From assembly GCA_004431415.1 (NCBI GenBank), contig QPMI01000143.1:124001-188000 (forward strand): DNA of 64,000 bases, given 5' to 3'. The stretch comes from Cyanophora paradoxa CCMP329. Taxonomy: Eukaryota > Plantae > Glaucophyta. The position numbers and the translations under genes are program-made. The notes beneath the pieces were generated by a model. The model was given only the letters and a program-made list of their open reading frames with translations. It was not told the DNA's origin and searched no databases. Shown here one piece after another: positions 7,211 to 28,816 of the stretch (the stretch's first letter is position 1; each line of letters starts with the position of its first letter).

Positions 7211-7283
7211 TGGTAAAGTGGGGCTACTGTCACCACATTGATTAATTCCCAATATATCAAACAATCCCAATCAAAATCCTCTC

Positions 7284-8130: not shown

Positions 8131-9209
8131 CGTTTAGTTAATCCACTTCTCAAATTATATCTCTTTCTCACTACTTTCTTACGATTTGGTTTTATTCCTT
8201 CTTTTTGGGAAACCACTCGATTCACATTTGTGGTTTTCTTTACCCTCTCAACTCTCTTTTGGGTTGGTATCTTTACGACAGCCTCTTTATCTACTTTTTG
8301 CAACTCATTTATTTTGAATTTCCTTCGAACTTCACGAACTGTTTCACCTTCATTATCCTCCAAGAGTTTGTATTTATTCTGAACTTTACCAGCCACCTTA
8401 AACACTTTCTCACTGAACCTTGCACCCTCTTTCTCGAAAACTCCCTTTGGATTCACAGCCCTCACATAATCTCCTTCTTGCACTGTTGGTAATCCCTCTC
8501 TCACATGCTTATTATGCAGTGAATCACGAAAGTAAACATACGATTCCTTTTCTTTATTTCCATACACAGCATTTGGAGAATCATTCTTCAGTGAACTGTG
8601 TGGACTGTTATTGTAAGTCGCCAACACATCTTCATAAACTTCAGTCCACTTCGAGTTCCCAGTTGACTTTATAGCCTTCCTTAAATACTGCTTGATTGTT
8701 CTTGTGAACCTATCAACTATTCCGAGTTTATCCCCAACTGTAATGTGGTCATCTTTTGCAATGTCTGTGTATAAAACCACACCATTATCCTCACACCATT
8801 TCTTGTAAATATTCCCTGAAAACTCCTTATCTCCGGAAAGAGCTTGGACTGTTCCAGCTTGGCTTTTAAATTTGTTTAGAATCTCAATCTTCTTCTCATC
8901 GTTCTTCTCCTTCCCAGTGACCATTTTGAAAGGAAATATAAAACCCTTCCTACTCAAAATATCTACGAATACTAGCATGCGATCCACACCATAGTTTGCG
9001 GTCTTATAATCCTTGAAATATATAATATCAACCTGAAAAGAATTGGGTGGGGCTACGATTCTAAGAAACGATTTCGGCTTGGTAGGCTTCTTGAAAATCT
9101 GATTCAATTCACTGTTTTTAAATCTCTTTTTCAATTCATCCTCATCAAACTTTACACCCTCATTGATTAGCTTTTGTCTATATTTTGTATAGCTCAATAC
9201 CTGCTCCAT
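8127..9209 (-). CDS. Retroviral-like (rve) integrase, outer element
   Basis: 360 aa; FQVDIIYF, FVDILSRK, LSGDKEF, GIVDRFTRTIK, YNNSPHSSL, GDYVR..FEK..FS. Confidence 0.9.
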   Translation of the reverse strand: MEQVLSYTKYRQKLINEGVKFDEDELKKRFKNSELNQIFKKPTKPKSFLRIVAPPNSFQVDIIYFKDYKTANYGVDRMLVFVDILSRKGFIFPFKMVTGKEKNDEKKIEILNKFKSQAGTVQALSGDKEFSGNIYKKWCEDNGVVLYTDIAKDDHITVGDKLGIVDRFTRTIKQYLRKAIKSTGNSKWTEVYEDVLATYNNSPHSSLKNDSPNAVYGNKEKESYVYFRDSLHNKHVREGLPTVQEGDYVRAVNPKGVFEKEGARFSEKVFKVAGKVQNKYKLLEDNEGETVREVRRKFKINELQKVDKEAVVKIPTQKRVERVKKTTNVNRVVSQKEGIKPNRKKVVRKRYNLRSGLTKR

Positions 9210-9270: not shown

Positions 9271-12214
9271 TTAGCGAGTTCTGTAATGCCCAATTGCAAG
9301 GGTATTAACCTTATCCTCACAAAGATACCTCTTGGTATCAAGCGCATTGAATGCCCTCTTTTTCATTTCAAGTGTTGATACCTCGTGGTTTTTTGAACGA
9401 ATTCCCCTTACTGTAACAGGATCCTGCTCTTTCCCCATGACAGTATCATAGAAATGCTTATACTCTAATTTGTTTTTAACTACACATCTCTGGATTCCCT
9501 TCAACCTCTTTACAGTATCTTTCTTTACATCTTCTTCTGTAGCATTCGACTTCTCTTTTAACAAATCCTTCAACCTTTTAGCAATCACTTTTTTCACATC
9601 TTCTTCCAAACCAAGAGCCTTGACATTCAAATCCTTCAAGTACGAATATGCCTTTGGTTTGTATCCTGCAAAGTCAGTAACAATCAAATCACCTGCATCA
9701 TCTTTAAAGACACCTGGAACCTTCTTATTTTTAGGATTGTAACTAACATGTGATGGGCTGTAATCCGATTGATCAAACACATGGGAGTCAGAATTCATGT
9801 CCTTGTATAGATCCTCAGTCTCAATAATGTAATACAGCGAATCTGTGTCAGTCATGAGAAGTTTTGCTTTCGATCCATACTTCTTGCGAATGTAATCGTA
9901 ATGGAACTGATACATGACCAGTTTTGATAAATCAAGGATCGCCTGACCAACATAGATTGGTTTATCGAGAAGAATAGTTCCACGATACATTTCAACTGCT
10001 GTAAGGTTCTCGGTGATGATCTTAACCTTTTTCAGTAGAGGGTTTGCATTCAGTTTCGCCTGCTTCTCTGGGTTGTGGCAGAGTTTGATGTTGCTACGAT
10101 TCCGGACATTCTCCATGGTTTTTCCATACACCGAATTATTCATGAGCTTGTAGAAATCCTTATCGAAATCATTTTGTGCCTGCTTCCTTTTCTCAGTATT
10201 GAAATCAATGTAAGGTTTCAACCAAGCCGATTGTTTGAATTCAATCCCTCGATGGATCTTCTTCACAATCATACCCTTTGATACATAGTATTGCAGATTC
10301 TTGATGTGAAGAACGTAGTTGTGTTTGTTGTTCAGATTGGGTACCAACTTTCGGTTTCCAGGAAGCTTTTCTTCACCAAGCATTTCAAGTTGGGAAGGTG
10401 ATAACATGTCCTCAGTTACTACCATAGATTCAGGTGCTAGTGGGTAATCGCTATGCTCATCATGCAAATGATCTGGATACTCCAAATCAACCTCCAATAA
10501 TGCCCCAGTTTCACCATCAGCATCAAATTTCATGTAATCAAAGTCTTCAACGTTATCGATCCATTCGAAGTCACCAATAGGTAACTTTTGACACATAGCA
10601 AATCCATACAAATTGTTGGCATCCCATGTGATGATGTATTTTATTGGCTTTGTTGGATCAAAGTTCTTCATGTATGGATTGTTAGCCTGAGCATTCCGCG
10701 TAGTTATCATCGATATTCCACCACGAATTCCAAGCTCGAACATACGATACATTTCATCATCATCAATGTTTTCGAGAACAACCTTTGTAAGTTTCAACAT
10801 AGCATTCCAACTGAGATGTGGAGCTGAAATGAAATGGATAGGATCAAGTCCATAATCTTTATAGCATCTCTGTCGGAAATTGTGACCAAACACATCAGCA
10901 AGAAGGAACACATCGGTTTCAAGGTAGATCTTCATGTAATCTCCAAGTGTCTTGCAATCAAATGCATCCCACACCTTCTGACAATGCTTGTAGTCACTGT
11001 CGCTAATTTCACGATCATTAAGCTTTGAGAAGAAAGCCTCTTTGCTGGGAAGTTTAGTTTCGCTGAGTCTATCAAGGCAATCCAAGTAATCATAAGGGAA
11101 GAATCCCTTCCTCATCAGGAGTTCTCTTTGGATCTCCGTAATTGTATGCTTGTCACACCATTCATTGGTGTATTTATAGTTGTCTCTGTGACCGAGATTA
11201 CTAGCAAGTTTGTCAAGACTTTCTTGCATGAAATTCAGGGAATCAACGAATTTGTAGCTGTTAAAGTCGAAACACTTGAACTTCTCGAAATTCTCAGCGA
11301 TACAGCGGATCTCTTTTCCTGGGTCTGCATGCTCACCGAGAGCTTTTAGAATGTAGTGTCCATCATACCCTTTCAGATTGTGGAATATAACAGGAATTTT
11401 AGGGTTAACCCTTCTTCTCAGGTTGCATTTATCGCAGGCAGCCCCAAGATATTTACCTGTGGTATGATCATGATCCCTGACTTTCTTTGTAATGAAAACC
11501 TTACCCTCTTCGCCATATTTAACGAATTGATCCTCGCAAATGTAGCAGCATGTGGCTTCTTTGAAATTCATTTTATCATATCGATCCATCTTTATTGGCT
11601 CGACCTCTCTCACCTTTTCAAGCAACTCAGCCTCCATATTTTTGAGAGTTGTCATGAAATGATTGATTACCTCATCATCGTTGTTTGGATCTTGTTTCTG
11701 GTAGAGGACTTCTCTTAAGATCTTGTCCTTATGCATGATCATGATTTTGTAAGCGCAAGGATGTGCTTTTGGTAAATTTCGGTGTTGATCTCGTTATTAT
11801 TTGAATCGTATTTAACACCTTTCTCATCAACACGAGTCACAACACTTTCAACAGATTTCAGGAGACACTCGAAATCAGCAACTGCAAACATCGGATGCCA
11901 AACTGTTTTGTCTGCATTTCTCTGTGGATCCCACATAATACAGCTTCCTGCTTCAGGCATCACATCAATAGTTGCTGTTGGTCGTTCATAGCATCTGCTT
12001 AGTCTAATGTGATTATCGAGGATCCTTTGACCTGTAAATCCCTTCAAGCAGCATTTACAGAAATACTTCGTTTCCTTGTGTGAGCTTGGAATGAGTCTCG
12101 ATAGACTTGAAATGAAGCCATAATGGGTGTTCTCCCCATCACTCCACATCAAAAGGTCAATGGTCTTGTGCTGCTCTGCTGGGTTCTTGTTCACATGGAT
12201 AGGGAAGACTCGTT
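9271..12214 (-). pseudogene. Protein-primed family B DNA polymerase, C-terminal portion (split by the nested insertion; 1-nt frameshift near 11759)
   Basis: ExoI VADFEC, EndoVII-like CYIC..RDHDH..GAACDKCN, ExoII FHNLKGYDGHY, KGFFPYDY, motif A DANNLYG, motif B KLMNNSVYGK, motif C TDTDS, KGI. Joins ORFs 11739-12194 and 9271-11742. Confidence 0.93.
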
Positions 12215-12618
12215 AGCTCAGCACTGCGCCGTGTCTCCAAAAAAATACCCGCGAAAAAATCAAAAACAAATCAGAAAACAAACCATTCCCAGTAACCCAA
12301 TCTTGAATATCAGTAAATCTCAGTAAGCCTCAGTAAGAAACATTGAATTAATCGAAGTTATATCATAATCTCGATTAATTATATCTTATCGAAGTTATAT
12401 CTTTTTTATGCGCCGTGTCTCCAAAACAATTCCCAAGAAAAACAAACCATTCACAGTAACCCAATTCCAAATCTCACTAAATCTCAGTAAGCCTCAGTAA
12501 CAAAAATCGAATTTATCGAAGTTATATCTTAAATCTTATTTATCGAAGTTATATCATTATCTCGATTAATTATATTTAATCGAAGTTATATCCTTTTTAT
12601 CCGCCGTGTCTCCCATGA
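12215..12618 (+). repeat. Left TIR of the inner element (404 bp)
   Basis: Reverse complement of 25720-26123 with very few mismatches; internal ~190-bp repeat (CGCCGTGTCTCC three times) and 5 ATCGAAGTTATATC motifs. Confidence 0.95.
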
Positions 12619-13064
12619 ATAACTAAGTAAGTTTAGTTAAAACCTCGAAAGAAAAACCTCTCATTTTTTACTGTATTTTTTGAACGATTTTTTACTGTAT
12701 TTGTTACACTAGAAACAACAATAGAAACGACAATAAAAACAATAGAATTTTAATTGTTTTTGAATCGTATATACGTCAATATATCACTGTAATATATATC
12801 ATATATATCATAGGAAATCGATTTATAGTCAAACCTATAACATATCAATTTGTGTATATGTGATATATATTCATATATGACGTCATGATGATGATGTATA
12901 TGTATCTGATATATATGACACACCGGCTTATTCGGGAGATCATGACGATCACGGCGATGTGTATATTGTCATGATGTATATGTATATATGTGTGACGCAA
13001 TCTGATTGGTGTGCTACTTGTTTTGTTGTATCCCCCTTCAACTTCTCCCCAGGTTTATATCACA

Positions 13065-13126
13065 GATAACATCTCAGATAATACCTCAGATAATACCTCA
13101 GATAATACCTCAGATTATATCTCAGA
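13065..13126 (+). repeat. 12-bp minisatellite (GATAATACCTCA) x5
   Basis: Read directly; the same unit recurs at 15492-15527. Confidence 0.9.
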
Positions 13127-13388
13127 CAAGATCCGTGCTCCTGCGGAGCACTAAGTACGGCGAAGCCTCGCGGACGCCCTCGCGGCTGTCACAGTAGGCC
13201 TATAGGGCACTCATCGACTGGCCAGCGAACAGCTTTCTGGCTGGAAGCTGGCTAGCTGACGGCCAGTCCAGCTAGCCCTGGCCGGCTAGAGGAATATTAA
13301 TGTGCTGAGGAAATAAAGGGTGGAGCAGATTGAGAGGAGATTAATTATATAATATTGTTGGGAAGGAGGCCCGCGGCCGGGAGGGGCG

Positions 13389-15170
13389 AGGTTCTCGCGG
13401 CCAGGCGCATGCACAGAGCTTGCGCATCACTTAAACAGAATCTCGAATGCATATAGTATCAATGTGCAGGGCTGCGGATCCGGAGGCGAGGGCGCGCGGA
13501 AAGCTGTGCAGGCCCGTTCAGGATCGAATTTTTGCGTCGGCTGGGTCCTCGCGGCCCGGCGCATACGCAAAGCGTGCGGAAGACTTTACCTACATCTCAA
13601 ATGCTTATGCTATTGTTCCGTGCATGCGCCCCGGCGTGGGCGCGCGGAAAGATGTCCGGGCCTGTGCAGGATCGAATTTTTGCCGTCGGCTGGGTTCTCG
13701 TGCTCTTTCATGTCTTCAAAGCTTGCGAAAAGCTTTAAAAAGATCTCAACTGAATATTGTAGCGATGCGCATGCGCGAGGATGCGAGGGCGCGCGGAAAG
13801 ATGTGCAGGTCCGTGAAGGATCGAATTTTCGGGGTCACCTGGATTCTTGCGCCCTGTCGCGTCCTCGGAGGTCTCGATCGAGATCTGAGGAAGGGCGCCG
13901 GGCTGCTGCTAGCCGTGAAGACTGTCATAAGTTGGACTCAGAAGTTCGTCAGTCACAACTAAATCCGTCATCGAATCGTCAATGGCGCGAGATCGGTGAG
14001 ATCTTTTTTTAATTCAAGATCTTGACAGATCTTGCCAATGTGTTCGCGAAATCTTTTTTGTATTCAGGATCTTGGCAAATCTGAGGAAGGGCGCCGGGCT
14101 GCTGAGACGGGATATAACTATAATTATATACTCGAAGATCGATCTGGGGCAGATCTAATTAATAATTATCTGGCAGTGCAGATCTCGAGGGCGCGCGGAA
14201 AGACGTGCGTGTCCGTGAAGGATCGAATTTTCGGGGCCAGCTGGATTGTCGCGCCCTGTCGCGTCGTCGGAGGTCTCGAAAAGCTTAACGAAGATTTCAA
14301 ATTACTATTGTAGGGATGGGGCCGCGCAGGATCGAATTTTTGCCGCCGGCTGGGTTCACGGTTCTCGTGTTCTTTCGCGTCTTCGAAGCTTGTGGAAGGC
14401 TTAGATAAAATCCCAAATGAATATAGTAGCGAGGATCGAATGTTCGGGGTCGGCTGGGTCCTCGCGGCCTGGCACATCTGTAAAGCGTGCGGAACGCTTC
14501 ATCTACATCTCAGATGCTTATGCTATTGTTCCGCGCATGCGCCGCAGCGTGGGCGCGCGGAAAGATCTCCGGGTCCGTGCAGGATCGAATTTTTGCCGTC
14601 GGTTGGGTTCTCGTGGTCTTTCGCGTCTTCGAAGTTTGTGGAAGGCTTTGATAAAATCTCAAATGAATATACCAGCGATGCGGCCTGCGTGAGGACGCGA
14701 GGGCGCGCGGAAAGTTGTTCAGGTCTGAAGAGGATCGAATTTTCGGGTCGGCTGGGTCCTCGCGGCCGGGCGCATGTGCAAACCGTGTGGAAGGCTTCTT
14801 CTACATCTGAAATGCATATGCTATTGTTCCGCGCATGCGCCGCGGCCTGGGCGCGCGGAAAGATGTCCGGGCTGTCCAGGATCGAATTTTCGCTATCGGG
14901 CACCTTCTTGCGCTGTTCCGGCTCCGGAAAGCGGATATCTGGAGTGCGCAGGTCGTGCTATGTCTATGCGCGCCAGTACGCATCGATTGCGCGCGTCGCG
15001 GGACCGGGCGGGACCGGCCGGATCAAATTTTCGGCCGACTCTTGGCACTGCAGCGTCGAGGGCGCTCGAAATCGAGCTTGCGGCGATGTGCTCGCCCTCG
15101 CGCGTCACTCTTTAGCGTTCTGGGGCGTCCCTGGCGCGATTTCGTCGCGGGACCGGGCGGGACCGGGTCC
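13389..15170. repeat. Degenerate ~149-bp-period GC-rich satellite inside the inner virus
   Basis: GGGCGCGCGGAAAG..GGATCGAATTTT core at 13490, 13638, 13787, 14189, 14551, 14701 and 14849; CGTCGCGGGACCGGGCGGGACCGG at ~14994 and ~15143. Confidence 0.88.
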
Positions 15171-15491
15171 CACCTTCTGACTCGGACTGCAGTTGTCGGA
15201 TCTCAAGTACCGGAATTGATCCAGAGGGAAATTCGATTCCGCGCGACGCCCACGGGGGAGCGGTCGTCTTAGGGGAGCCAGGACGCTAAAAATGGATCTA
15301 GAGAGGTCTGTGGGGGTTCGGGCAGCTGTGTAATGTCCATCAATCGCGTCCGTGTCGAGGCAGAATTAATAATTCTGTGTCGAGGAGCTGCGACACGGAA
15401 ATTATCTGGCAGGGGAGATCTCGAGTGGAAAAAAAGGTTAAAAAAGGAATTTCGCTCGGCGGTTTTTGGGTTTGAGAAAGAGGCTTCGCCT

Positions 15492-15527
15492 GATAATACC
15501 TCAGATTATATCTCAGATAATACCTCA
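15492..15527 (+). repeat. 12-bp minisatellite (GATAATACCTCA) x3
   Basis: Same unit and orientation as 13065-13126. Confidence 0.85.
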
Positions 15528-15590
15528 TATATTAATTTTAAATTTGCTGGCTTCTGATTGGTTCATGCCACAGAGTAGGGACTTTTCATC

Positions 15591-15673
15591 AAATGCGCCA
15601 TAAAATGCGCCATAAAATGCGCCATAAAATGCGCCATTAAATGCGCCATTAAATGCGCCATTAAATGCGCCAT
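15591..15673 (+). repeat. 12-bp minisatellite (AAATGCGCCATW) x7
   Basis: Read directly from the sequence. Confidence 0.93.
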
Positions 15674-15917
15674 GAAAACCCGGGGAATAAACCATAGTAG
15701 GGTATATGATCTCACGGTTCAAGTTTCGCTCACGTTTCACCGAAGTTTCGGTAAATCGATTATCGGCATCTTCAAACGCTTGTATCTCATCACCAGATTA
15801 TGATCTCGCAACGTTCTGCATATCGGTTTGAAGCGCTGTTTAAGCTCTACGCAACTGTGCAATCCCCACAGTATTTCAAGCTACCTTATCATACAATATT
15901 CTTCAGAAATCGACCTT

Positions 15918-16676
15918 TTACACACTGATTGTGGTCATTTCTCGCTGAATCCGAGCCATCTGACTCCTTTTAATTGCTTTTCTCTTCACAAACTTCTTAA
16001 AGCCCTTTATATCATCATCAGTGAGTACTGCTCTATCAGTATAGGTCTTGATATCATAACCTTGCAGGCTAGCTATGACAGTTTGGTAATTATAACCCCA
16101 TAGTCTATGCAATTCCTTGTAGGTCTTCTTATCCAAACCACCATTGTACTCATCAAAGGCGCAATTGAACTCTTTCTCGTTCCCAAGAATATTGAAAAAT
16201 ACAACGAACTCCACATTGCGACGAATGGTAGTAGAAATAGAACACAAACGCTGAACATTAAAGATTACCGAGATTGAATAATGTCTTCCACTCGTTACTA
16301 ATTTAGATAACACAGCCGAATTATGCATATCCAAATTTGAACCTATCATGTCATCGAGTATGATAACTAGGTTATTTCGCTTTTCGTTATTCTCAATTCG
16401 TTTCTTTTGCATACTGATCAATCTCAAAACAATGTTATCATCCCACTCTTCATAGATGTTATCGGGATGGGTGATGTCATTGAATTGTCCAGTAAAAGCT
16501 GTTGAACTAAATATAACGATTTGATCGATCTTGTCACGAAGCTCGTAAAGTAAGTATTTTGTGAACATTGTCTTACCTGTATTGGAGCGACCAACATTCA
16601 AAATTCTTGTCGGGATTCGAACCGTCTTACTCGGATCGAACTCCGGAATATCATCAAGATTTACTGTGTTATCCAT
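15918..16676 (-). CDS. A32-like (FtsK/HerA) genome-packaging ATPase, inner element
   Basis: Walker A GRSNTGKT, Walker B LVIILDD, GRHYSISVIFNVQ, IRRN. Confidence 0.93.
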   Translation of the reverse strand: MDNTVNLDDIPEFDPSKTVRIPTRILNVGRSNTGKTMFTKYLLYELRDKIDQIVIFSSTAFTGQFNDITHPDNIYEEWDDNIVLRLISMQKKRIENNEKRNNLVIILDDMIGSNLDMHNSAVLSKLVTSGRHYSISVIFNVQRLCSISTTIRRNVEFVVFFNILGNEKEFNCAFDEYNGGLDKKTYKELHRLWGYNYQTVIASLQGYDIKTYTDRAVLTDDDIKGFKKFVKRKAIKRSQMARIQREMTTISV

Positions 16677-16756
16677 TACAGTAATAAGATAAAAAACAAA
16701 ATAAAGTACACACCTACAAATAATTGCGCTTCCTACACTAACAAAAGAAAAGAACT

Positions 16757-17983
16757 TTAGAAGTTCGAGACTTTCAGGGTAGAGATGTTGTAGCCATTAA
16801 GTACCATAACATTGTGTCGGAGGGCATAGATATCAACCTGAACAGGAGCGGCATCAGTGCATCCGGAAACAGTGAGATCCATGTAACTCGAGCTGCTGTT
16901 GAAGAAATCCTGGTAACCCATAACCGAGTTCCGAAGCGAATCTTTTCCAGACTTGGAAAGAACAATTCCGTAAACATTTCCAGACTCGAATCCGTACGTG
17001 GTATTGCCCACAGTAACACCCTTGTAGTGAGAAGGAATGTGATTGACAGCAGAGAGGAAACCGGAAATGGGTTTGTTAGATATATCCAGGGAGCGATTGT
17101 TGTGGAAGATCTGGAACTGATCAATCTTAACAGCAGATTCATGACCGCAGAAATCCGAGTGAGTGTAGGTGTTAAGTTTGTTCACCTCTCGAACAGTCAT
17201 CAGAATCGAGTGAACCAGACCAGAAACATTAGCGAGTGTAACCTCAACAGATTCACCAGCATCAGCGGTTTTGAGCGCTCGGGTCTTCTTGTGAATGACC
17301 TCTGTGATCGGGATGCGAATGCCACCTTGTTCGTTCGCCATTTTAAGGAGTGTCTCAGCCTCAGCCGAAGCAATGTTTACGAATTGGCAGATCAGAGAGC
17401 AATCCGCAAAGGTTACAGATCCACCAGCCGGAACTTGGACAATCGCAGCATCACGGAAATCAACCTCGATTGTTGGCATATCGGCTAGCGTACATAATGG
17501 GAAATAAGCTTCTTCCCAGAAAGCAGCGGGGATTCTAACGATGTATTCCATTGCTTCATCTGTGCTTTCACGATCTGTCTCTTTGAAGTAACCGAGAGAA
17601 GCATACATGCTGCTCATGGTAGCGTGATCATTATCGACCAGGGCGTTTACAGTGATCCAATCACCAGGGATAATATACTTGAAACCACCATGAACGAAAC
17701 GGACCTCATTAATAAAAGAAGAACCACCATTGGGGAGGGTGCAGGCTACACCACCACCAGTGGCAATCTTGAAATAGAGCGAAACACCAGCAAGGAGTTG
17801 CTTGCGAGGTAGATCAAAGTAAGCGGTATTCTTGAAGCCAAAAGTGTTGCCCCGGGGACGAACTTGCTCGAGGAATGGTTTGTATTTGGGGTTGGTTCCG
17901 ATTTGGAGACCAGGGGAAAGATAAATTTGATCGGAACCGGGAGTTTCGAGGAGTTCCTTCAGGGTAGTTCCAGTGAGTGCCAT
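16757..17983 (-). CDS. Double jelly-roll major capsid protein, inner element
   Basis: 408 aa next to ATPase and penton; the N-terminal pattern FGF..AYFDLPRKQLLAGVSLYF..GGSSFINEVRFVHGG..IPGDWI resembles NCLDV/PLV MCP; YFPLC and C-terminal IYALRHNVM. Confidence 0.8.
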   Translation of the reverse strand: MALTGTTLKELLETPGSDQIYLSPGLQIGTNPKYKPFLEQVRPRGNTFGFKNTAYFDLPRKQLLAGVSLYFKIATGGGVACTLPNGGSSFINEVRFVHGGFKYIIPGDWITVNALVDNDHATMSSMYASLGYFKETDRESTDEAMEYIVRIPAAFWEEAYFPLCTLADMPTIEVDFRDAAIVQVPAGGSVTFADCSLICQFVNIASAEAETLLKMANEQGGIRIPITEVIHKKTRALKTADAGESVEVTLANVSGLVHSILMTVREVNKLNTYTHSDFCGHESAVKIDQFQIFHNNRSLDISNKPISGFLSAVNHIPSHYKGVTVGNTTYGFESGNVYGIVLSKSGKDSLRNSVMGYQDFFNSSSSYMDLTVSGCTDAAPVQVDIYALRHNVMVLNGYNISTLKVSNF

Positions 17984-18035
17984 CTCTTATGTTTAAAATA
18001 CCAAAAGAAATTTTTAAAATGCTTTATTAAACAGA
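17984..18035. promoter_or_regulatory. Putative bidirectional promoter between divergent MCP and penton genes
   Basis: 52-bp AT-rich spacer between head-to-head ATGs; identical in the outer element (29753-29804). Confidence 0.5.
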
Positions 18036-18923
18036 ATGACGCGTTACTATCTCAATATTGATTCCAGGGACCGATCGGATGGAACCCCAACTAATTTCAC
18101 ATACAGACTCCCTTATGCGATCCAAAAGGTCAGAGCCTGTCGAGTAACGAACTTTGAGATGTTTCACAATCTTTACAACCTCTCTGAAGTAGGAACCCTC
18201 ACCACACAAACACTCGATAATGCTGGGAACCCAAAGAATAGAAACAACGAAGTCCTCCGAGGTGCATATACACCGGATTCACTGGTGAATTATCTGATCG
18301 CTCGCATTGGATCCCAGCCCTATAATCAAGCGGGTGGCGGAACTTACACTCGCCATTTCTATGTAACCTATGATCCCACAACATTGCTTCTAAGGTTCAT
18401 GTGTGAGGTTCCATTCTCAATCACTATGAACACTCAACTCTTAGCCAATTTCTGTGGTTTTGAAAATGCTAACACACTGTACCAATCGAGTCCTCTATCA
18501 TCTAATGTCACAGTTGGAGCCTTTACTTATGCTCACTACATTGATAGTGAAATGCCATTAGATCTACTATTTAATTCCTATTTGCTTCTTCATGTTGATC
18601 CACTGAAAGGAAGATATGTGAGCAATAACAAACGAGATAACAATGCTATCGCGAAAATTGAGATTGACCAAACGGTTGGCAGTCTATTAAAATATGATTC
18701 ATCGAATAATTCCATGATCGTTCACGAGCAGAATGGCTTGGTTGAGGTTGAGACTCTAGATGTGAGACTTTCTTACTGGAATGGAGCCACAGCAGACATT
18801 ACTACCGACTGGTCGATGACTCTTGAACTGATTACTGAAGATGATAAAGATCTGACGAAAAAAGCATTGAAGAATGTCATAAAAGAGTTGGAGGGACTCT
18901 ACCTGCCGTTCTCACGGTCATAG
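18036..18923 (+). CDS. Minor capsid (penton) protein, inner element
   Basis: N-terminal LNIDSRDR..PTNFTYRLP..IQKV..LYN and C-terminal LDVRLSYWNG..DWSMTLEL, typical of PLV/NCLDV single jelly-roll pentons. Confidence 0.82.
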   Translation: MTRYYLNIDSRDRSDGTPTNFTYRLPYAIQKVRACRVTNFEMFHNLYNLSEVGTLTTQTLDNAGNPKNRNNEVLRGAYTPDSLVNYLIARIGSQPYNQAGGGTYTRHFYVTYDPTTLLLRFMCEVPFSITMNTQLLANFCGFENANTLYQSSPLSSNVTVGAFTYAHYIDSEMPLDLLFNSYLLLHVDPLKGRYVSNNKRDNNAIAKIEIDQTVGSLLKYDSSNNSMIVHEQNGLVEVETLDVRLSYWNGATADITTDWSMTLELITEDDKDLTKKALKNVIKELEGLYLPFSRS

Positions 18924-18959
18924 GAAATACTGTAGAATAAATTTGTTTCAATATTACAA

Positions 18960-19721
18960 ATGGCTCGCAAGACTCAACCCAAGAATTTCTTAGCCAAACC
19001 AGCCGCTGAAGCGGATGTTGGCAATGGTGAGAATGGAAGGAACTGGTATAAGAAATCGAAAGGACTCGCTGCATACGGAACTGGTGACCTCGAAAAGGAA
19101 GTCCATAAAGAACGAAACCAATTCACCCAAGCCACTACGAAAAACAGTAATGATGATAATGCCCTTGTTGACCAAGTCCCACTGAACCGCATGCCCGGAG
19201 CCAAACGAGGAATCAAGAAAGGACAGTTCAAATCATCCACAAAGGACAAGGTTGCCTCATCATCGACACTGCTGAAACTGCTTGATGGTGGTGAGCGACT
19301 CTACTCAACCTATTCCGAGAAAGACCATCGCAACCGCTACTTTATTCGTTCAACCACTGGTGGACTGAAATCTGTAACATATCAGTATGCTAAGAGTCTT
19401 GTTGATGGTATTGCAGCAGAGACCAAAAACGAAAACAAGATCAAGGAACAGCCAATCACAAAGGAAAAGGTTGAGAAGAAACCAGAAGTAACCCATGAAG
19501 TTATTCCCGAACCTGTTCATGTGGCAAAAGACTCACCTACAGAATTGATTGCAAAGACCATTGAGTATCAAGACTCCAACAAAACGGATTTGCCGGTTCT
19601 CAATAAGTCGATCCTTCGGGTTGCCACTTCGCAGGCTGATCCAGTCAACTCGATTCCAAATGCTGCCCCAATGGTCTCTGGATTCGCCAAGCTTGGTATA
19701 AGACCCGGTTATCGCCGTTAA
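18960..19721 (+). CDS. Lys-rich hypothetical protein (possible virion core protein)
   Basis: 253-aa ORF with a homolog at 28043-28816; function inferred from composition and position only. Confidence 0.7.
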   Translation: MARKTQPKNFLAKPAAEADVGNGENGRNWYKKSKGLAAYGTGDLEKEVHKERNQFTQATTKNSNDDNALVDQVPLNRMPGAKRGIKKGQFKSSTKDKVASSSTLLKLLDGGERLYSTYSEKDHRNRYFIRSTTGGLKSVTYQYAKSLVDGIAAETKNENKIKEQPITKEKVEKKPEVTHEVIPEPVHVAKDSPTELIAKTIEYQDSNKTDLPVLNKSILRVATSQADPVNSIPNAAPMVSGFAKLGIRPGYRR

Positions 19722-19754
19722 GGATCAATCTGAATAATATAATTTCTCAAACAT

Positions 19755-20010
19755 TGTTAGCGCTACGTAACCAATCCTATCCCGTAGGCTCAAAACTTCT
19801 TCATTTTTATGGAGGCGTTGTAGAGCGAAGTGAAATATCCATAGGTAAATCACTTTAATCACCTGTTCTACCGGGTTCAGTGGTAGAAACTTGCAGCCGA
19901 CAAGTGAACCTTCTGGGTATCGGTGGCTTTATCATTTTTCCAGCATCTTCTTTCGTACTGGATGCTCTGCAATCGGGACCAAAATTTGACAGGAGTTTAT
20001 TCGCTATATA
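19755..20010 (+). ncRNA. Candidate structured RNA or cis-element
   Basis: Run of hairpins with nested closing stems; conserved in the outer element (27755-28005) with changes concentrated in loops. Confidence 0.45.
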
Positions 20011-20070
20011 CAGACAGAAAAACTACTTAAAGATTTCTTAACATATATTAAGAGAGTAGAAAAGGACAAC

Positions 20071-20328
20071 ATGCCAATCAGTGAGGCTCAGAAGCGTGCT
20101 ACTTATCGTTATCGTAAAACTGAAAAAGGTCAGGAATATTTGAAAAAGTACAATGCCAGATTTGCAAAGCAAATGCGTGACTTATACCATACTGATGAGT
20201 GTTACAGAGCCATGAAGATCGTTGAGAGTTCCCAGCGTCTCTATGCTTCCAATGCAGTCTGCTTTGTGAAGTATCTCTATGGTGTCCCGTATTCTAACCG
20301 TGGTCGCAAATCGAAATATCTCTGTTAA
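20071..20328 (+). CDS. Small basic helical protein (SEAQKRA..Y type)
   Basis: 85 aa; the second copy at 27437-27694 differs by 2 conservative residues plus synonymous changes. Confidence 0.8.
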   Translation: MPISEAQKRATYRYRKTEKGQEYLKKYNARFAKQMRDLYHTDECYRAMKIVESSQRLYASNAVCFVKYLYGVPYSNRGRKSKYLC

Positions 20329-20333
20329 TCGTT

Positions 20334-20360
20334 TTTCTCAGCGCGATCTGCTCTGAGAAA
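20334..20360 (+). terminator. Hairpin just downstream of the 85-aa ORF stop (possible 3'-end signal)
   Basis: TTTCTCAG..CTGAGAAA stem, conserved in the outer copy (~27405-27431). Confidence 0.35.
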
Positions 20361-20569
20361 CCCGTGGGAAACGCGCTGGAACCACAAATATAATCATTCT
20401 GTTATTTTTAGAGTTCGATGATCGAGCCAACCCTTTGTTATTTTTATGAATGCCCTCGACTAAATTTATTTTGTTGGAGACTTTTGGTTTTGTCGGTAAA
20501 ATTTGACGCGAGTATAAAAGTATTTAAAGAAAACTTTTGTAGGTATATATTAATAGAGTGAACAAAGAA

Positions 20570-23500
20570 ATGCCTCGACCAAGTAATCGAATTTCGAAAA
20601 ATTTGCAGGATGAGATTCTTGGCTACTACATGCAAGCAAAAGTAGAAGACAAATTGACCCGAGAGCAGGATATCTATTTCTTGAGAGAATTTACTTTCAA
20701 AGCAATTAGAATTCCAAAGTTGATTGATATCAGAGATACACTGAGAGGTATCGTAGAGCCTCGTTTGTATCGCAAGCAGGAGAAGAAGGAGAAGAGGGCT
20801 GAGAGAGCCGCTAAGAATGTTGAGAAGCAAAACAAGAAAGCGGAGCAAGCGAGAGAGCGGAAGCGCTTGACTCCTTTCCAGCAGATGATTGCTAACCTCC
20901 GTGAGTTTGTTGAAAACTCACCTGGAAACATGGTCACCCTGAATGTGAGACTCTTCCGTGAGTTGCAAGAGGGAGAACAAGCCCCTGCAAATGCAAACAG
21001 GGTCACTGAGAATGGTGTGACCTACATTGAATCGAAGAGGCTTCGGAACAATCGCCCCTTTGGTATCCAGTGTACCAAGGCAGCTTTTCTGAATGCTCTC
21101 GGTCTGGTTCAATCCACCTTCAATACGTTCCCATGTGTTGAGGGGACTGTCATTGCTGAATTTATTGCAGCAGTTATTGAGTTTAACTCGACCAATCAAG
21201 ATTTCCGCTACCTAAAACTAATTGAGCAAGATACCTACCCCGATATTATGACAATTGAAAGAGTCATCACGACAGATAATGAAGAATACATCCCAAGAAA
21301 TGAACAAGTCCTCAGAGACAATACAAACGCTCCAATGATTATTTCGAATTTCATTAAAAACGAAGGGAACCCCCAAGCCACCACATTCAAGGAAATGTTC
21401 TTGAAAGGTGATTCATTCAAGGTTGGGAAGTGTGTTTTCGATGTCCTCATCAAATGGTTTGGAGGAGCGTTTGAGAAGGCTAAGACCAAAGGGAAATACA
21501 AGCGAATCGATTGGTCTTACAACGGACTCTTTAAGATGGTGAATGGGCGAGACCCTGTTGAAGGAGATGATTGGGGCATTTCTTTCAAGTCCATTTCGGA
21601 GAAGGTTCTTGACCCACTGCGCCTAGGCATGGTTACAATTGGAAAGGACGACAGAACCCCTGTCCCTGAACTGACTTTCCTGCCCAAGACCAGGAACACA
21701 CACTTGACCCCTTCTGTTGCATATGTGAAGATTGAGAATGGTCACATGTATTTGTTAAATCACAATATTAAGGCTCTCACACAGTCCTTCAATGGCTCCA
21801 AGCCAAAAGATACCAATGTTCCACTCAGTTCTCGTTACAAGATTATAAAGCAAAGAAGGTTCAAGGAGTTTGCCACAAATCCCGATGACATTCTGAGAAT
21901 TGTCAGGTCTGACAATCCAAAGAACCAATCGAGCATTCGAATCTGCTATGGTGGTTCACTGGATGAACTACTCAGAGAGTTCATTGTGGTGCATAATTAT
22001 CAGGTCCAACCTGGGTTCTCCCAAATCGGAAAGGCAACCCATATTCGTTTCACTATTGACGATAAGGATGTTGTCGTGACCCCACCTGGTAACGATACAG
22101 ATGTGGAAACAGCTTTCGAGATTAGCTTCAAGAATGCTGAGTACAGAGATAAATTCGAGAAACTAAATCTGGATATGTATAGGTCTCTAATCAACACTTC
22201 CAACAAGAGTACTTACAATGAGCAAACCATAAATGCATTCAAGAATGGAGTGCAGACTGCCCTTCGTGGTCTCTTTGATGTGGATGAGGAGACCTTTGAT
22301 GAAATTCGCTATAACACAGATATTTACGAGTTCGATATGTGCAAAGCATACCCTTACATTGTAGCCTTGATGATCAAATTCGTTCCTGTTCTCAGCAAGT
22401 TCGATGTCTTCAAGAGTGTGACAATCACAGATGCAGAGCAAATCGAGGAATACAGCTTCTATTACGTGAAACTGGACGACAAATACTTTTTCAAAGCCAA
22501 AGACAAGAACGGAAAGGAGTACGAAGCAAACACCTACAACAGATACAAGAGGATGATCATTGATTCCAAGTACAATGTCGTTCCTGGTTTGGTTCTCAAA
22601 AAGCATTTCGAGGATTTCAAGGATGACATCTCCATCAAAGCGGTTCTGCGACCTTACAAACTCATTCCCAACCTTGCAGGCAACACAGTTGCTCGAATCT
22701 TAGATAGCGACCTCGATCCTGTTGATAAGAAGCAGATCTTGGTGAGTGCAATTGGGCAAACTGGAAAGCAACGAAATAGCAGAGTGAAAACCACCATTTT
22801 CCACAACAGAGACGATGCGATCGAGTTCCAGAAACAGAACGGAGGGGAGGTTAAAATTTACCTCTTTGGTGAGACTCTTGCCACTTATGAGGAGACAGAG
22901 TTCGTTCTGTGTGAGGAAGAGATGACCGAACCCCATATCTACTATGTCAATCAGGTAGCAGAAAAGCAGCTCATTGATGGCTTCATGCCATTGTACACTA
23001 CCCTCTTGTCAATTATGAGGATGTGTATGTATGAGAAGTGTGTCGAACTCGCTAAACAGCAGATCCGACCACTCGCTTTGAACACCGATTGTGTTTATGG
23101 GATCGCTTATGAACCCATTGCCCCAGTGTCATTCGATCGCAATGCCTTTGAGAATATTGGAAAATTCAGTGTGAAATGCTGCCCCAATTTTTCTAAAAAG
23201 TTTTCAGGTGAGAAGAAAGACCTCGAGGCAAAACGAATTCGTTACGGAAAGTTTGAGAGAGCGACTGACTTTGTGAAAATCGAGAACTACAGTTATACCA
23301 AACACTCTGTGGTTGATGAGTATGACACAACCGCGATTTGTGATTTGCTGGCTACACAAAAACGATGGGTTCTTCTCGGATCAGTTCCAGGAGTTGGAAA
23401 GACTCACATGACAGTTGAATATGGGAAGCGTTTCAAAAATCCCCTCTATATTGTTCCGACCAACAAGCGAGTGAAGGAAATGAAAGAGCAAGGATTGAAA

Positions 23501-24657
23501 AATGTGAAGACAATCTATGATGCCCTTCATCTCAAAATCGATGAGTCGAACATGGATGAAATCGTAGGAGGGAATGCATCTGGTTTGGTAGAATTTGATT
23601 GCATTGTTATTGATGAGATCTGTCAGTTTAAGATTGGAGAACTGGCAGCCCTGGACCACATCATGAATGAGCAGTTCCCAGATAAGGTATACATTGCCAC
23701 AGGTGACCCGTATCAGAACCCACCCATTCAGGATATGAGTGTTGATCAAGATGAGTATTACCTTGATATCCTCCATCGCCTGTTCCCCAACGAATTGTTA
23801 CTCCAAGTGAACAAGCGCCATGAGACTGAGGAAGATCGCAGAAAGGTTGAGCAAATTCGAATTGATTTATTCGAGAAAGGTTTGAGTGTAAGTGAGGTCC
23901 TAGCAAAGTACGGGTTCAAGGTTGTGGACGAATTGGCAAAGACAGATAAAGGCATTGTGTATACAAACCGCAAGGGTGCAGAGGTGAACCTAGCCCTTCA
24001 CAAAATGAACTACGGGATAATGTTTCCATTTATGCTGGCGGGATCAAAGTTGTTGCAAAGACTCGTATTGCAAAGGGTGGGAAGATAGTTCATAATGGAT
24101 TTGTCTACAAGATTGTCAAGCTCTCAAAGGACAGTTTCATTATTGCTGACATTGCCAACAAGAAGGATGAGATTGTTCTCAGCAGGGATGCAGTCAAACA
24201 TTTCGCCCTGGCTTACGCAAACACCTGCCATGTTGTTCAAGGTGATACGATTCGCTGCAAAGGGAACAGGGTAGTCGTGTTCGAAACTGGGGCGCCATTT
24301 GTTTCAAAGAAGTGGCTATATGTTGCTCTCACTCGAACCACAAGGCTGGATGATGTTGTTATTTACCATGATAATTTCGAAATGGCTCACTGGAAAGTGT
24401 GGAAAAGAGAGAATAACGAGAAGATTTCGACTTACAAGGATCAGGACCGAGCAGCAAACAGACAATTCGATGAGCATGATTACATCACATGGGATTGGAT
24501 CAAGCAGCGATATGGGAAGCAGTATGGGCATTGCCTGCGATGCTACAATGCCATGGACTTTGAAGATATTTCGGTAGATCGAATTAATAATGCTGTGGCT
24601 CACATTACCAAAAATTGTTTCCTCTCTCATATTAAGTGTAACTGTGCCGCCCAATAA
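20570..24657 (+). CDS. Divergent PolB - SF1 helicase - HNH-like fusion (~1360 aa; 1-nt frameshift at 24014-24016)
   Basis: PolB-like motifs FDMCKAYP (A), KQILVSAIG (B) and LNTDCVY (C); helicase GSVPGVGKT, IVIDE, TGDPYQNPP and QVNKRH; after the frameshift LAYANTCHVVQG and WLYVALTR; C-terminal CLRC..SVDRINN..H..NC..SHIKCN. Likely start ATG at 20570. Confidence 0.82.
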
Positions 24658-25718
24658 TGGATAGTGTATTATCATTCAAAAAGTATAGGCAGAAACTGAT
24701 TAATGAAAAAGTGAGTTTTGATGAAAAAGAGTTGAAAAAGAAGTTCAAAAACTCAGAACTCCAGCAAATTTACAAGAAACCAAGGAAACCCAAATCGTTT
24801 CTTCGCATAGTGGCAAAGCCTAGATCGTTTCAAATCGATATAACATATTTGAGAGGGTTTCAGACTGCCAACAATGGCATTTTCAAAATGCTTAGTTTCG
24901 TAGACATACTTAGTCGCAAAGGATTTGTTTATCCTTTTAAAAACAGCAGTGAGATCCCGAGCATTTTAAATAGGTTCAAGCAAGAAGCAGGCAAAGTTAA
25001 TGCTCTCTCTGGGGATAATGAGTTTTCCCAGGCAGTATACCGAAATTGGTGCAGTGAACATGGTGTAATGCTATACACAGATGTGGCAAAGGATGACCAC
25101 ATCACAGTAGGAGATAAACTGGGGATAATTGATAGGTTCACTAGGACTTTCAAACAGTATCTCAGAAAATCGATGACAGCAAAGGGAACCACGAAATGGA
25201 TCGATCTACTTAGTGATGTAATTGACTTGTATAATAGCAGTCCCCATTCTGCATTGAAAAATGACTCTCCAAATGCAGTGTATACAAATGAAGATAAACA
25301 GTTATTTATTTACATGAGGGATACTGTTCACAACAATCGTGTAAAGGAGGCTGATACTAATCAAGTGAAACCAGGAGACACAGTTCGAGTTTTGCAACCA
25401 AAGGGATTGTTTGAAAAAGAAGGTGCGCAATTCAGTCAGAAGGTCTACACTGTTGCAAAGGCTGATAGGAATCGTTTCAAAGTGCTTGAAGATAATGATG
25501 GTGAGGAAACAAAAGAAGTGAAGAGGAGATTTAAGAAACAAGAATTGCAAAAGGTGAATAAAGATGATATCATTAAGATACCATCACAAAAACGGATTCA
25601 GCAGGTTAATAAAACGAATAAAGTGAATCGATTGGTAGCAAAAGAAGGCATAAAACCCAATCGGAGTAATGTAATTCGGAGGAGATACAATTTGAGAAGT
25701 GGTTTAACGAAACGCTAA
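24657..25718 (+). CDS. Retroviral-like (rve) integrase, inner element
   Basis: 353 aa; FQIDITY, LSGDNEF, GIIDRFTRTFK, YNSSPHSAL; start overlaps the upstream stop (TAATG). Confidence 0.9.
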   Translation: MDSVLSFKKYRQKLINEKVSFDEKELKKKFKNSELQQIYKKPRKPKSFLRIVAKPRSFQIDITYLRGFQTANNGIFKMLSFVDILSRKGFVYPFKNSSEIPSILNRFKQEAGKVNALSGDNEFSQAVYRNWCSEHGVMLYTDVAKDDHITVGDKLGIIDRFTRTFKQYLRKSMTAKGTTKWIDLLSDVIDLYNSSPHSALKNDSPNAVYTNEDKQLFIYMRDTVHNNRVKEADTNQVKPGDTVRVLQPKGLFEKEGAQFSQKVYTVAKADRNRFKVLEDNDGEETKEVKRRFKKQELQKVNKDDIIKIPSQKRIQQVNKTNKVNRLVAKEGIKPNRSNVIRRRYNLRSGLTKR

Positions 25719-25719
25719 A

Positions 25720-26123
25720 TCATGGGAGACACGGCGGATGAAAAGGATATAACTTCGATTAAATATAATTAATCGAGATTATGATATAACTTCGATAAAT
25801 AAGATTTAAGATATAACTTCGATTAATTCGATTTTTGTTACTGAGGCTTACTGAGATTTAGTGAGATTTGGAATTGGGTTACTGTGAATGGTTTGTTTTT
25901 CTTGGGAATTGTTTTGGAGACACGGCGCATAAAAAAGATATAACTTCGATAAGATATAATTAATCGAGATTATGATATAACTTCGATTAATTCAATGTTT
26001 CTTACTGAGGCTTACTGAGATTTACTGATATTCAAGATTGGGTTACTGGGAATGGTTTGTTTTCTGATTTGTTTTTGATTTTTTCGCGGGTATTTTTTTG
26101 GAGACACGGCGCAGTGCTGAGCT
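25720..26123 (-). repeat. Right TIR of the inner element
   Basis: Reverse complement of 12215-12618; begins just after the integrase stop codon. Confidence 0.95.
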
Positions 26124-27195
26124 CTCGTTTCTTGTTATCAAGGAAGTAGACATTGATAGGTCTACCAATCATCTTCGAAGCTAGATCGTAAACCCTAGAG
26201 TCATTCTTGACTGGGAACTCAAAGCGACTCCAATCGAATTCCTTATCCCACTTATTGTATCGTTTCAATTCAGATCTGTGGTTTCGAATGACATCATTGT
26301 GATGCAAGCCAATCTTAACAGCATGTCGGAAACATTCTTGGTCTTCATTCTTAGGATTGATAACCGCCTTTCTCTTTTCAATCTCTTCTGGAAGAGGGAT
26401 GTAAGAACTTCCTGTCAGAGGTGTGTAAGATAGAATTTGTAGGGTTACTTCAAGAATATTGTGAATCTCTGCGTACTCGATGGCTGTCATGATTTCATGC
26501 AGATCATCCACAGCTTGCCTGACGATATCCGTTAGGTCATTTGCTGGAAGAGCTAGGTAAAAATGCATTGAGCTTGGGTATCTGGTAGCATATTGGTACT
26601 CTCCTGTCCACCTTCCATTTTGCTTCTCCTTGTATTTGTAATTCGCCTTCACTTTGAACTGGAACTTAATTCCATTGTGTCTGTCCAAAGCCTCTTGAAG
26701 TCTTCTATGGAGATCATCCCATCCTATCTTCTCAGTGATAAACCGATGGATTGTGTTAATTAGGTTTTTCTTAGCGTTTTTCCATGTAAGCTCCTCGACT
26801 AGGTGATTCATGGCATTCATTACCTGAACCTGGTTGGCTTCCTGCTTTGACTTCCATTTTTGAACCCTCTCTTGCTTCTTGGACTTCTTCTGCTGATTTC
26901 TTTTGTATTTCTGCACTTCTTTGGTCTTTGCTTGCCGTTTGGCAACATTCTTAGCGGCTCTCTCAGCCCTCTTCTCCTTCTTCTCCTGCTTGCGATACAA
27001 ACGAGGTTCTACAATACCTCTCAGTGTATCTCTGATATCAATCAACTTCGGAATTCTAATTGCTTTGAAAGTGAATTCTCTCAAGAAATAGATATCCTGC
27101 TCTCGGGTTAATTTGTCTTCTACTTTTGCTTGCATGTAGTAGCCAAGAATCTCATCCTGCAAATTCTTCGAAATTCGATTACTTGGTCGAGGCAT
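26124..27195 (-). pseudogene. N-terminal portion of the outer pPolB (terminal-protein and protease-like region)
   Basis: YTPLTGSSYIPLP..KAVINPKNEDQECF..FEFPV..INVY is the Polinton pPolB N-terminal signature; it joins in frame to 12208 when the insertion and one TSD are removed. Confidence 0.9.
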
Positions 27196-27436: not shown

Positions 27437-27694
27437 TTAACAGAGATATTTCGATTTGCGACCACGGTTAGAATACGGGACACCATAGAGATACTTCACA
27501 AAGCAGACTGCATTGGAAGCATAGAGACGCTGGGAACTCTCAACGATTCTCATGGCTCTGTAACACTCATCAGTATGGTATAAATCACGCATTTGCTTCG
27601 CGAATTTCGCATTATACTTTTTTAAATATTCCTGACCTTTTTCAGTTTTACGATAACGGTAAGTAGCACGCTTCTGAGCCTCACTGATTGGCAT
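27437..27694 (-). CDS. Small basic helical protein, outer copy
   Basis: Near-identical to 20071-20328. Confidence 0.8.
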   Translation of the reverse strand: MPISEAQKRATYRYRKTEKGQEYLKKYNAKFAKQMRDLYHTDECYRAMRIVESSQRLYASNAVCFVKYLYGVPYSNRGRKSKYLC

Positions 27695-28042: not shown

Positions 28043-28816
28043 TTAACGGCGATATCCGGGTCTAATACCGAGCTTGGCAAACCCTGAGACCATTGGGGCA
28101 GCATTTGGAATCGAGTTGACTGGATCAGCCTGCGAAGTGGCAACCCGAAGGATCGATTTATTGAGGACCGGCAAATCCGTTTTGTTGGACTCTTGATAAT
28201 CGATGGTCTTTGCAATCAATTCGGCTGGCGATTCTTTTGCAACATGAACAGGTTCAGGGATGACTTCATGGGTTACTTCTGGTTTCTTCTCAACCTTTTC
28301 CTTTGTGATTGGCTGTTCCTTGATCCTGTTTTCGTTTTTGGTCTCTGCTGCGATACCATCAACAAGACTCTTAGCATACTGGTATGTCACAGATTTCAGT
28401 CCACCAGTGGTTGAACGAATAAAGTAGCGGTTGCGATGGTCTTTCTCGGAATAGGTTGAGTAGAGTCGCTCACCACCATCAAGCAGTTTCAGCAGTGTTG
28501 ATGATGAGGCAACCTTGTCCTTTGTCGATGATTTGAACTGTCCTTTCTTGATTCCTCGTTTGGCTCCAGGCATGCGGTTCAGTGGGACTTGATCAACCAG
28601 GGCATTATCATCATTTGAGTTTGAGTAAGCGCAATTGTGTGAGCATTCATGGTCTGGTGAACATTTTTATCGAGATCACCAGTTCCGTATGCAGCGAGTC
28701 CTTTCGATTTCATATGCAGCGGTTCCTTTTGATTTCTTAAACTGTTTCCGTTCTGGTTCCGCTTGCTCAACTGGTTTGGCTAAGAAATTCTTTGGCTGGG
28801 TCTTTCGAGTTGCCAT
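28043..28816 (-). pseudogene. Lys-rich protein, outer copy, 5' part frameshifted
   Basis: ATG at 28816 (MATRKTQPKNFLAKP); a short internal duplication (KKSKG.AAY twice) and frame changes precede the intact 176-aa C-terminal part. Confidence 0.72.

Follow-up and report, generated by a model that had tools for sequence, protein, structure and literature searches.

Polintons as well as Polinton-like viruses (PLVs) are classed partly by their replicase, and the frequent change of replicase among them is a standing question. In Halocafeteria seosinensis, PLVs and virophages (5 PLVs, 9 virophages) are reported to lie frequently within one another (bioRxiv 10.64898/2026.07.28.741278; here and below, such sources are cited for portions of their text). 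For the polisuviruses, two contigs are reported with tandem genomes that share morphogenetic modules (70-78% and identical) and carry different replicases; it was proposed that mosaicism is helped when genomes integrate side by side, and that pPolB and integrase have the same ends as substrate (bioRxiv 10.64898/2026.10.13.758929). For endogenous mavirus-like elements (EMALEs), no sequence-specific integration was seen, and some Ngaro types prefer viral DNA (PMC8547959). Here we describe a stretch of 64,000 nucleotides of Cyanophora paradoxa CCMP329 (assembly GCA_004431415.1, contig QPMI01000143.1, positions 124,001 to 188,000; hereafter the window), in which one such element, the inner, interrupts the pPolB gene of another, the outer. 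Nesting of PLVs and replicase swaps have each already been reported, and this nest is an event of a known kind; the added value lies in a swap pair of polinton and Tlr1 type that is recent, resolved to the base and divergent in its capsid, and the swap pair is more useful than the nest. Two families whose capsids are 97% identical, one of pPolB type and one of Tlr1 type, are present in a single sequenced eukaryote at several to tens of copies; the point of the swap falls within the replicase gene, and there are signs that exchange took place repeatedly. The element ends, the target duplication, the reading frame, the empty alleles and the two replicases behind a shared 84-codon start are directly visible, and we describe them in turn.

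Insertion into the outer pPolB gene

The inner element occupies 12215-26123 (13,909 bp), begins with AG at its 5' end, finishes with CT at its 3' end, and lies between two copies of CTCGTT. AG..CT is a polinton terminus. The insertion is defined by the following features:

9271..12208, minus strand: 3' part of the outer pPolB (PF03175, E 6.3e-18; PF02945, E 5.3e-5)
12209..12214, no strand: left copy of the target-site duplication (TSD), CTCGTT, by direct sequence comparison
12215..12618, plus strand: left terminal inverted repeat (TIR) of the inner element, 404 bp, beginning with AG; an independent flank is seen at 12215 in run X15
25720..26123, minus strand: right TIR of the inner element, ending with CT, by self-comparison
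26124..26129, no strand: right copy of the TSD, CTCGTT, by direct sequence comparison
26130..27195, minus strand: 5' part of the outer pPolB, with the shared 84-residue start, likely the terminal-protein region, and the Cys motif of the vOTU-like domain

The two 404-nt TIRs differ by 3 mismatches; given the local composition, two fixed flanks would agree over 6 bases by chance with a probability of about 4e-4. The element, its AG..CT ends, its TIRs and the exact CTCGTT duplication, all put forward in an earlier note on this DNA, are borne out on the sequence, and insertion of integrase type is supported, a 6-bp TSD being the signature of an rve integrase (PMC12220804). On the minus strand, the outer pPolB runs from an ATG at 27195 for 357 codons and one base through one TSD copy, in a frame that the piece below 12208 takes up again (..DNKKR-X-FPIHV..). 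Searched separately, both pieces match the same full-length protein in 96 of 120 pPolB homologs, and they abut within two residues in 81 of these 96. The in-frame rebuilding of the outer pPolB claimed in the earlier note thus stands as regards the frame match and fails as regards an open pPolB in the window, where a one-base frameshift lies near 11758.

The conserved Cys of the outer pPolB is residue 288 and the His lies 98 residues further on, against a median spacing of 91 in the homologs with both motifs (81 of 120). The insertion point falls 69 residues past the Cys motif, with the His motif about 28 residues further on, and does lie, as had been claimed, between the conserved Cys and His motifs; the domain that carries them is assigned to a vOTU-like protease, likely freeing the terminal protein (PMC11161782). 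The target region has 43% GC. Since the inner and outer elements point in opposite directions, the locus looks like a palindrome, and the earlier view that it holds two genomes in opposite orientation rather than one rearranged palindrome agrees with the TIRs, the TSD and the integrase that the inner part has to itself. On these same features, together with the ~3-fold depth of the inner part (see below), one palindromic element of 25 kb was rejected, and homing as the cause of the insertion was rejected on account of the terminal 6-bp duplication.

Uninterrupted alleles, copy number and age

Read evidence was taken from assembled contigs of six runs (five DNA-like, plus X15), 20 of the 24 listed runs containing part of the stretch; these contigs are collapsed short-read assemblies from which rare variants are dropped, and their depth is a rough guide, no copy number. 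An empty-site joint from 12208 to 26124, skipping 12209-26123 exactly and with 6 ambiguous letters, is present in four of four runs, and in the fifth DNA-like run the empty-site continuation is present as a loose end; uninterrupted outer-type copies, once looked for, therefore appeared as an empty site in all five DNA-like runs. Run X15 has no cover over 9849-12212 and is uninformative on this point. One of its contigs departs from the window exactly before 12215, at a second insertion site of the inner family, which makes 12215 a true end of that family. Even with up to 3 mismatches allowed, the flank of this second site matches nothing in the window and hence lies outside the outer element.

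Host flank depth was 118.3, 88.4 and 33.6, with the outer polymerase at 5.8, 3.8 and 7.9 times host, and the inner replicase reached 17.5 times host in run X7 and 21-27 times in run X1. Read roughly as copies, this corresponds to ~4-8 of the outer type and ~17-27 of the inner type, an excess of the inner of ~3:1. In X7, the window's own outer-allele letter at 26176 (the right junction being 52 bases away) accounts for a depth of 116 out of 392, against a host flank of 118, and about one host-depth unit for this window-type letter gives the nest indirect support.

The inner replicase differs from the majority contigs at 1-2 of 2,873 bases, and the inner family is therefore young. Compared with the uninterrupted majority contigs, the outer copy has 16-17 differences over ~2,400 bases on its 3' side and 21-23 over 777 on its 5' side; the coding differences listed number 49 (with 18 of those 21-23 among them), of which 38 are synonymous and 11 non-synonymous, and this mostly synonymous pattern suggests that the outer copy was a working variant until recently and no long-dead relic. 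Both sets of differences agree with the recent insertion proposed in the earlier note. Its further claim, that the resident replicase was disabled, holds for this copy and not for the family, in which uninterrupted alleles reach ~4-8 times host depth; this copy has, in addition, lost its right terminus. The frameshift near 11758 in the outer pPolB is absent from the majority contigs in three of three runs, and one near 24013 in the inner replicase is absent from the contigs in four of four; both are either polishing errors or copy-specific changes.

Two families and their shared capsid block

Both elements have the same gene order, namely TIR, ATPase, major capsid protein (MCP), likely minor capsid protein, a 253-residue open reading frame (ORF), an 85-residue ORF, replicase, integrase and TIR, over unit lengths of ~11.1 kb for the inner (without a third insert, see below) and ~11.5 kb for the outer. 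A common block of 4.9 kb, 85.5% identical (15964-20822 versus 31899-26943) and with MCPs that are 97% identical, ends abruptly after replicase codon 84, the first 84 residues being identical. Past this codon, the outer element continues into a polinton-type pPolB and the inner one into a replicase with a palm, a superfamily 1 (SF1) helicase and an HNH part; identity between the two integrases is 63%, and each family has its own extreme ends. The outer element, called a close relative in the earlier note, is one in its capsid block and first 84 replicase codons only, and not in the rest of the replicase, the integrase or the termini. A 14-bp motif with 23 repeats is found only in the end regions of both families.

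Divergence at fourfold sites, computed on 25-205 sites per gene, is 0.52 for the ATPase, 0.42 for the minor capsid protein, 0.18 for the MCP, 0.15 for the 253-residue ORF, 0.06 for the 85-residue ORF and 0.04 for the replicase start. In the region of the 85-residue ORF, the majority contig has the outer-type letter at both of the two sites listed (10 differences exist), so that alleles near this ORF are not sorted according to family. That gene conversion acted locally between this locus's two capsid blocks is not supported, as it is the majority contig, and not this inner copy, that matches the outer element at the 2 listed sites. We infer that the families recombined repeatedly and that replicase, integrase and termini moved as one set. 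Within the inner element, we annotated:

12967..15739, no strand: high-copy, apparently non-coding, GC-richer repeat, limits approximate (depth, contig joints, Tandem Repeats Finder (TRF))
15918..16676, minus strand: A32-like packaging ATPase (PF04665, E 1.1e-15)
16757..17983, minus strand: MCP, likely double jelly-roll, 408 residues (feature similarity and profile)
18036..18923, plus strand: likely minor capsid protein (0.97 to the Sputnik V18/19 cluster at rank 23, a lead; no Pfam match)
18960..19721, plus strand: 253-residue ORF, no family match (ORF list, Pfam scan)
20071..20328, plus strand: basic 85-residue ORF, 98% identical to the outer copy
20570..24657, plus strand: Tlr1-like replicase with a one-base frameshift near 24013 (AAA_19, E 1.5e-7; UvrD_C_2, E 6e-4, past the frameshift)
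24657..25718, plus strand: retroviral-type integrase, 353 residues, open frame (rve_3, E 0.0025, and rve, E 0.017, below cut-off)

The inner replicase is made up of the shared 84-residue start, vOTU-like Cys and His motifs, polymerase palm motifs, an SF1 helicase and a C-terminal HNH-like finger, with the C-terminal motifs of the helicase and the finger lying past the frameshift. It has 3 homologs among 7,071 candidates (22-24% identical), and the Cys and His, the palm motifs and Walker A/B are aligned in all four sequences. No PF03175 match was obtained for it, and the palm motifs are followed by the helicase, with no full pPolB with exonuclease; the reverse fusion described in the portion of PMC12721341 cited here is not its arrangement. 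The 408-residue MCP has a feature-based similarity of 0.98 to the Capsid_N/Capsid_NCLDV clusters, with low recognition, and a 7-sequence profile of it gave two matches at E<=1 against the PDB, both to major capsid proteins (E 0.09 and 0.23). Five representatives of 1.8 billion match it at 24-28%, one of them a Cyanophora paradoxa protein, and close relatives were found neither among 3,907 candidates (0) nor in viral or metagenome contigs. Relatives of the inner integrase were likewise not found in viral contigs, and two structure predictions were unusable (mean pLDDT 30.5 and 39.5). As regards the Tlr1-like gene set, the ATPase is firm, the MCP likely and the minor capsid protein a lead only, and there is no protease; by its replicase fusion, ATPase, rve integrase, TIRs and 6-bp TSD, the inner element is predicted from its sequence to be a Tlr1-like PLV.

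A third layer lies inside the inner element. This repeat measures 2.4-2.8 kb, has a core at 13127-15491 between exact 26-bp direct repeats, and is built of ~149-bp units (TRF); over 13124-15778, summed depth is 430-1,500 times host. Contigs join 12966 to 15740, as judged by these two end positions, at about inner-family depth in three of four runs, and most inner copies are therefore likely to be without it. There are 12-bp arrays on both of its sides. Rfam gave no match within 7000-33000. The observed/expected CpG ratio is 0.77-0.79 in both viruses (7202-12214, 15740-32574), whereas it reaches 1.2 in the flanking host DNA and, in the third repeat, 1.3.

Apart from the two parts of pPolB listed above, the outer element comprises:

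7203..7453, plus strand: left end and TIR, with the end at ~7202-7205 (7284-7453 matches the right end, 170/170 to 32405-32574)
7768..8130, plus strand: DUF5710 ORF, in the outer element only (PF18974, E 3.4e-15)
8127..9209, minus strand: retroviral-type integrase, 360 residues (rve_3, E 0.03, below cut-off)
27437..27694, minus strand: 85-residue ORF, 98% identical to the inner copy
28043..28812, minus strand: counterpart of the 253-residue ORF, its frame lost around a tandem duplication of 25 bp (28688-28736, seen in the window itself)
28853..29752, minus strand: likely minor capsid protein, 73% identical to the inner one
29805..31031, plus strand: MCP, 396 of 408 residues identical to the inner one
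31178..31945, plus strand: packaging ATPase (PF04665, E 2.4e-14), 82% identical to the inner one
31967..32260, minus strand: 97-residue ORF, no family match (ORF list, Pfam scan)
32405..32574, minus strand: right TIR, ~81 bp shorter than the left end (an X7 contig exits the TIR here into 32575 onward, as a loose end)

Other outer copies diverge before 7203 in three of three DNA-like runs, and one host-flank contig per run spans 6500-7232, placing the start of the element near 7203 and not at the TIR match at 7284, with the right end cut short at 32574. As the right end matches the left only from 7284 on, ~81 bp of the right terminus are gone, and without one terminus this copy was likely no integrase substrate and immobile anyway. 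No matching 6-mer, and thus no outer TSD, was found in the flank for four candidate left ends. A PolB with exonuclease and palm is present, interrupted in this copy, and complete TIRs with a 6-bp TSD are absent from it. Downstream of the insertion, the pPolB holds the second half of the vOTU-like domain, a Zn finger, and endonuclease VII-like, exonuclease and polymerase parts, with 7,233 of 7,995 scored candidates being homologs at E<=1e-20, the best of them 43-48% identical. The acidic triad region is conserved between both integrases, with D as the third residue. No Pfam protease match, and hence no maturation protease, was found among the scanned ORFs of the outer element, which has no gap of more than 350 bp without an assigned feature besides the end regions and the third insert, and three small ORFs without family.

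Several further observations concern the outer family. A 204-bp direct repeat (99%) at 7335-7796 doubles the subterminal motif array at the left end. In three of three DNA-like runs, one contig exits the outer element after 8753 and another enters it before 9314, each with at least 255 foreign letters, from which other outer-type copies appear broken or interrupted there. Over 7682-9206, contigs of X15, whose RNA type is a guess (it has one spliced host intron), show 0 differences from the window's outer integrase allele, from which the DNA majority contigs differ at 12 listed places; this weakly hints that the allele is transcribed, in a single run and with the possibility that another copy shares it.

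The host flanks have 59-62% GC, with a 48-nt GT..AG intron beside the outer element. Exons of a gene for U3 snoRNA-associated protein 6 (169-1233, minus strand; PF08640, E 9.5e-14) place a housekeeping gene 6 kb from the virus. To the right of the shortened TIR, 32575-32620 reads ILGAGAAGLAAA, with a stop soon after; we take this to resemble the start of a dinucleotide-binding fold, and it is perhaps the remnant of a host gene cut by the deletion. A GC-rich repeat of at least 2 kb occurs in three copies (37745-40650, 52132-57500 and 59702-64000) that are 77-94% alike, one of them inverted, and gave no Pfam match in the ORFs tried; 28 host-side ORFs gave no Pfam match either.

Origin of the nest and comparison with known systems

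We consider it likely that a young PLV entered its sister's polymerase gene by an ordinary integrase reaction, at a site given by weak regional bias and host tolerance and not aimed at a rival. A retroviral-type integrase would have made a 6-base staggered cut, recently, in an outer copy whose polymerase had not yet decayed, and the insert may have persisted because, in a host rich in genes, a hit in viral DNA does no harm and because other outer-type copies retain an intact polymerase. Several results weigh against this account. Neither filled junction, 12214|12215 or 26123|26124, is bridged by any of the contig pieces listed (0/32 in one comparison, with 10,042 more existing, and 0/32 in a second, with 214 more existing), and the majority contigs cross the empty site unbroken; as short-read contigs drop rare variants, the missing bridge neither proves nor refutes the nest. 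The Pfam matches of both integrases are below cut-off. Under uniform integration, finally, the chance of any inner copy lying in an outer-type element is 0.6-3.6%, and in an outer-type polymerase gene 0.2-1.3%, rising to 3-14% for any related element, in a post hoc estimate that takes the genome, on contig totals, as 70-120 Mb. So low a chance requires some bias, or reflects the rarity of a case picked post hoc; the shortfall could be made up by AT bias, by silenced chromatin or by selection against insertions into host genes.

The missing bridge is also what would be expected had the assembly stitched two related repeats together, as 4.9 kb of inverted homology are hard to assemble and the frameshifts near 11758 and 24013, missing in the majority contigs, suggest imperfect polishing. 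An exact copy of 6 target bases, at termini defined independently by another site, is however not what a join error would produce, the joins fall outside the homologous block, contigs show both host junctions of the outer element, and window-specific outer alleles are present in X7 and X15, so that we regard an artefact as very unlikely. The low chance under uniform integration would, in turn, favour targeted interference, in which the integration complex of the inner family is guided to genomes of the outer type and destroys their polymerase; the routes proposed are end-binding proteins common to both, the subterminal repeat that they share or cleavage by the HNH domain. The 14-bp motif with its 23 repeats confined to the end regions of both families, the HNH-like finger at the end of the inner replicase and the ~3:1 excess of the inner family would all suit it, and Ngaro retrotransposons show that viral DNA can be a target. 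Yet this is a single event, the flank of the other inner-type site matches nothing in the window, all five DNA-like runs are dominated by outer polymerase alleles without interruption, the terminal 6-bp duplication fits an integrase and not homing, and no chromodomain was seen in the outer or the inner integrase; targeting is in our view unlikely. Alternatively, the inner element could have inserted into a free outer genome during co-infection or co-activation, with the 25-kb composite integrating afterwards, or two loci could have recombined later. The outer element without TSD and its shortened right end, which abuts a frame fragment that begins with ILGAGAAG, point to rearrangement at the locus, and the outer copy diverges more on the 5' side (21-23/777) than on the 3' side (16-17/~2,400). 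But the right end is explained by a simple deletion that followed integration, faster evolution of the terminal-protein region would also account for the asymmetry, and the composite, polymerase-broken and more than twice the unit length, would need help in trans, which makes this course of events distinctly unlikely.

Ordinary integrase-driven insertion of a young PLV into its sister is thus the reading we prefer, and the pair itself would have come about by a crossover at replicase codon 84-85, joining one capsid block either to the set of pPolB, integrase and termini or to the Tlr1-like replicase with its own integrase and termini, with further exchanges of differing ages probably patching the capsid block. 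With considerable doubt, one may go further and picture capsid-sharing families that compete in one host, a Tlr1-type family that prefers to integrate into its pPolB-type sister, and nests that act, along with the 84-codon replicase start common to both, as exchange sites for replicase-integrase-terminus sets, a lineage thereby flipping between 'polinton' and 'PLV'.

As a nest, the locus resembles those of Halocafeteria, where viral elements lie in viral elements with TIRs and TSDs, and where host transposons are also found inside viral elements, with one replication gene disrupted (bioRxiv 10.64898/2026.07.28.741278). A nest with near-identical capsids, or the insertion of a virus into a polymerase, is not described in the text of that preprint in the portions considered, and the present site is resolved to the codon. 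EMALEs offer a further likeness, as a mobile element breaks an endogenous-virus gene there too, with one Ngaro in a pPolB (PMC8547959); the intruder is here a capsid-coding virus, and it is for the Ngaros that a preference for viral DNA was measured. It is the third layer that is more like these Ngaros, and like the retroelements of cryptophyte PLVs, in being a GC-rich insert in AT-rich viral DNA (PMC8547959; PMC12220804). This pair is not described in the literature found, a scope that excludes preprint supplements, nor does such a pair appear in the portions of PMC12220804, PMC10120064, PMC9356565 and PMC12344493 that were covered.

The inner element shares with Tlr1 and Tlr1-like PLVs the MCP, the likely minor capsid protein, the ATPase, the rve integrase, the lack of a protease, and a replicase of vOTU, palm and SF1 helicase with a C-terminal endonuclease, which is of GIY-YIG type in Tlr1 and HNH-like here (PMC5499653; PMC11161782). 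It further differs in its ~11.1 kb without the third insert, in an MCP at 24-28% to its 5 closest representatives, and in having a sister family with a full pPolB. The outer element, in turn, is, tentatively as regards the pPolB group, like Polintons/Mavericks with a group 1-type pPolB in its vOTU-exonuclease-palm pPolB, rve integrase, ATPase and TIRs (PMC11161782); its pPolB is 43-48% identical to homologs, the named ones being from corals and molluscs. Unlike them, it has no maturation protease that could be found, is only ~11.5 kb long and has its capsid in common with a Tlr1-type element. Compared with the polisuviruses, as far as these are described in the sections cited above, the present pair is nested, a single host has several copies of each member, the swap falls within the replicase ORF, and a different replicase comes with a different integrase and different termini.

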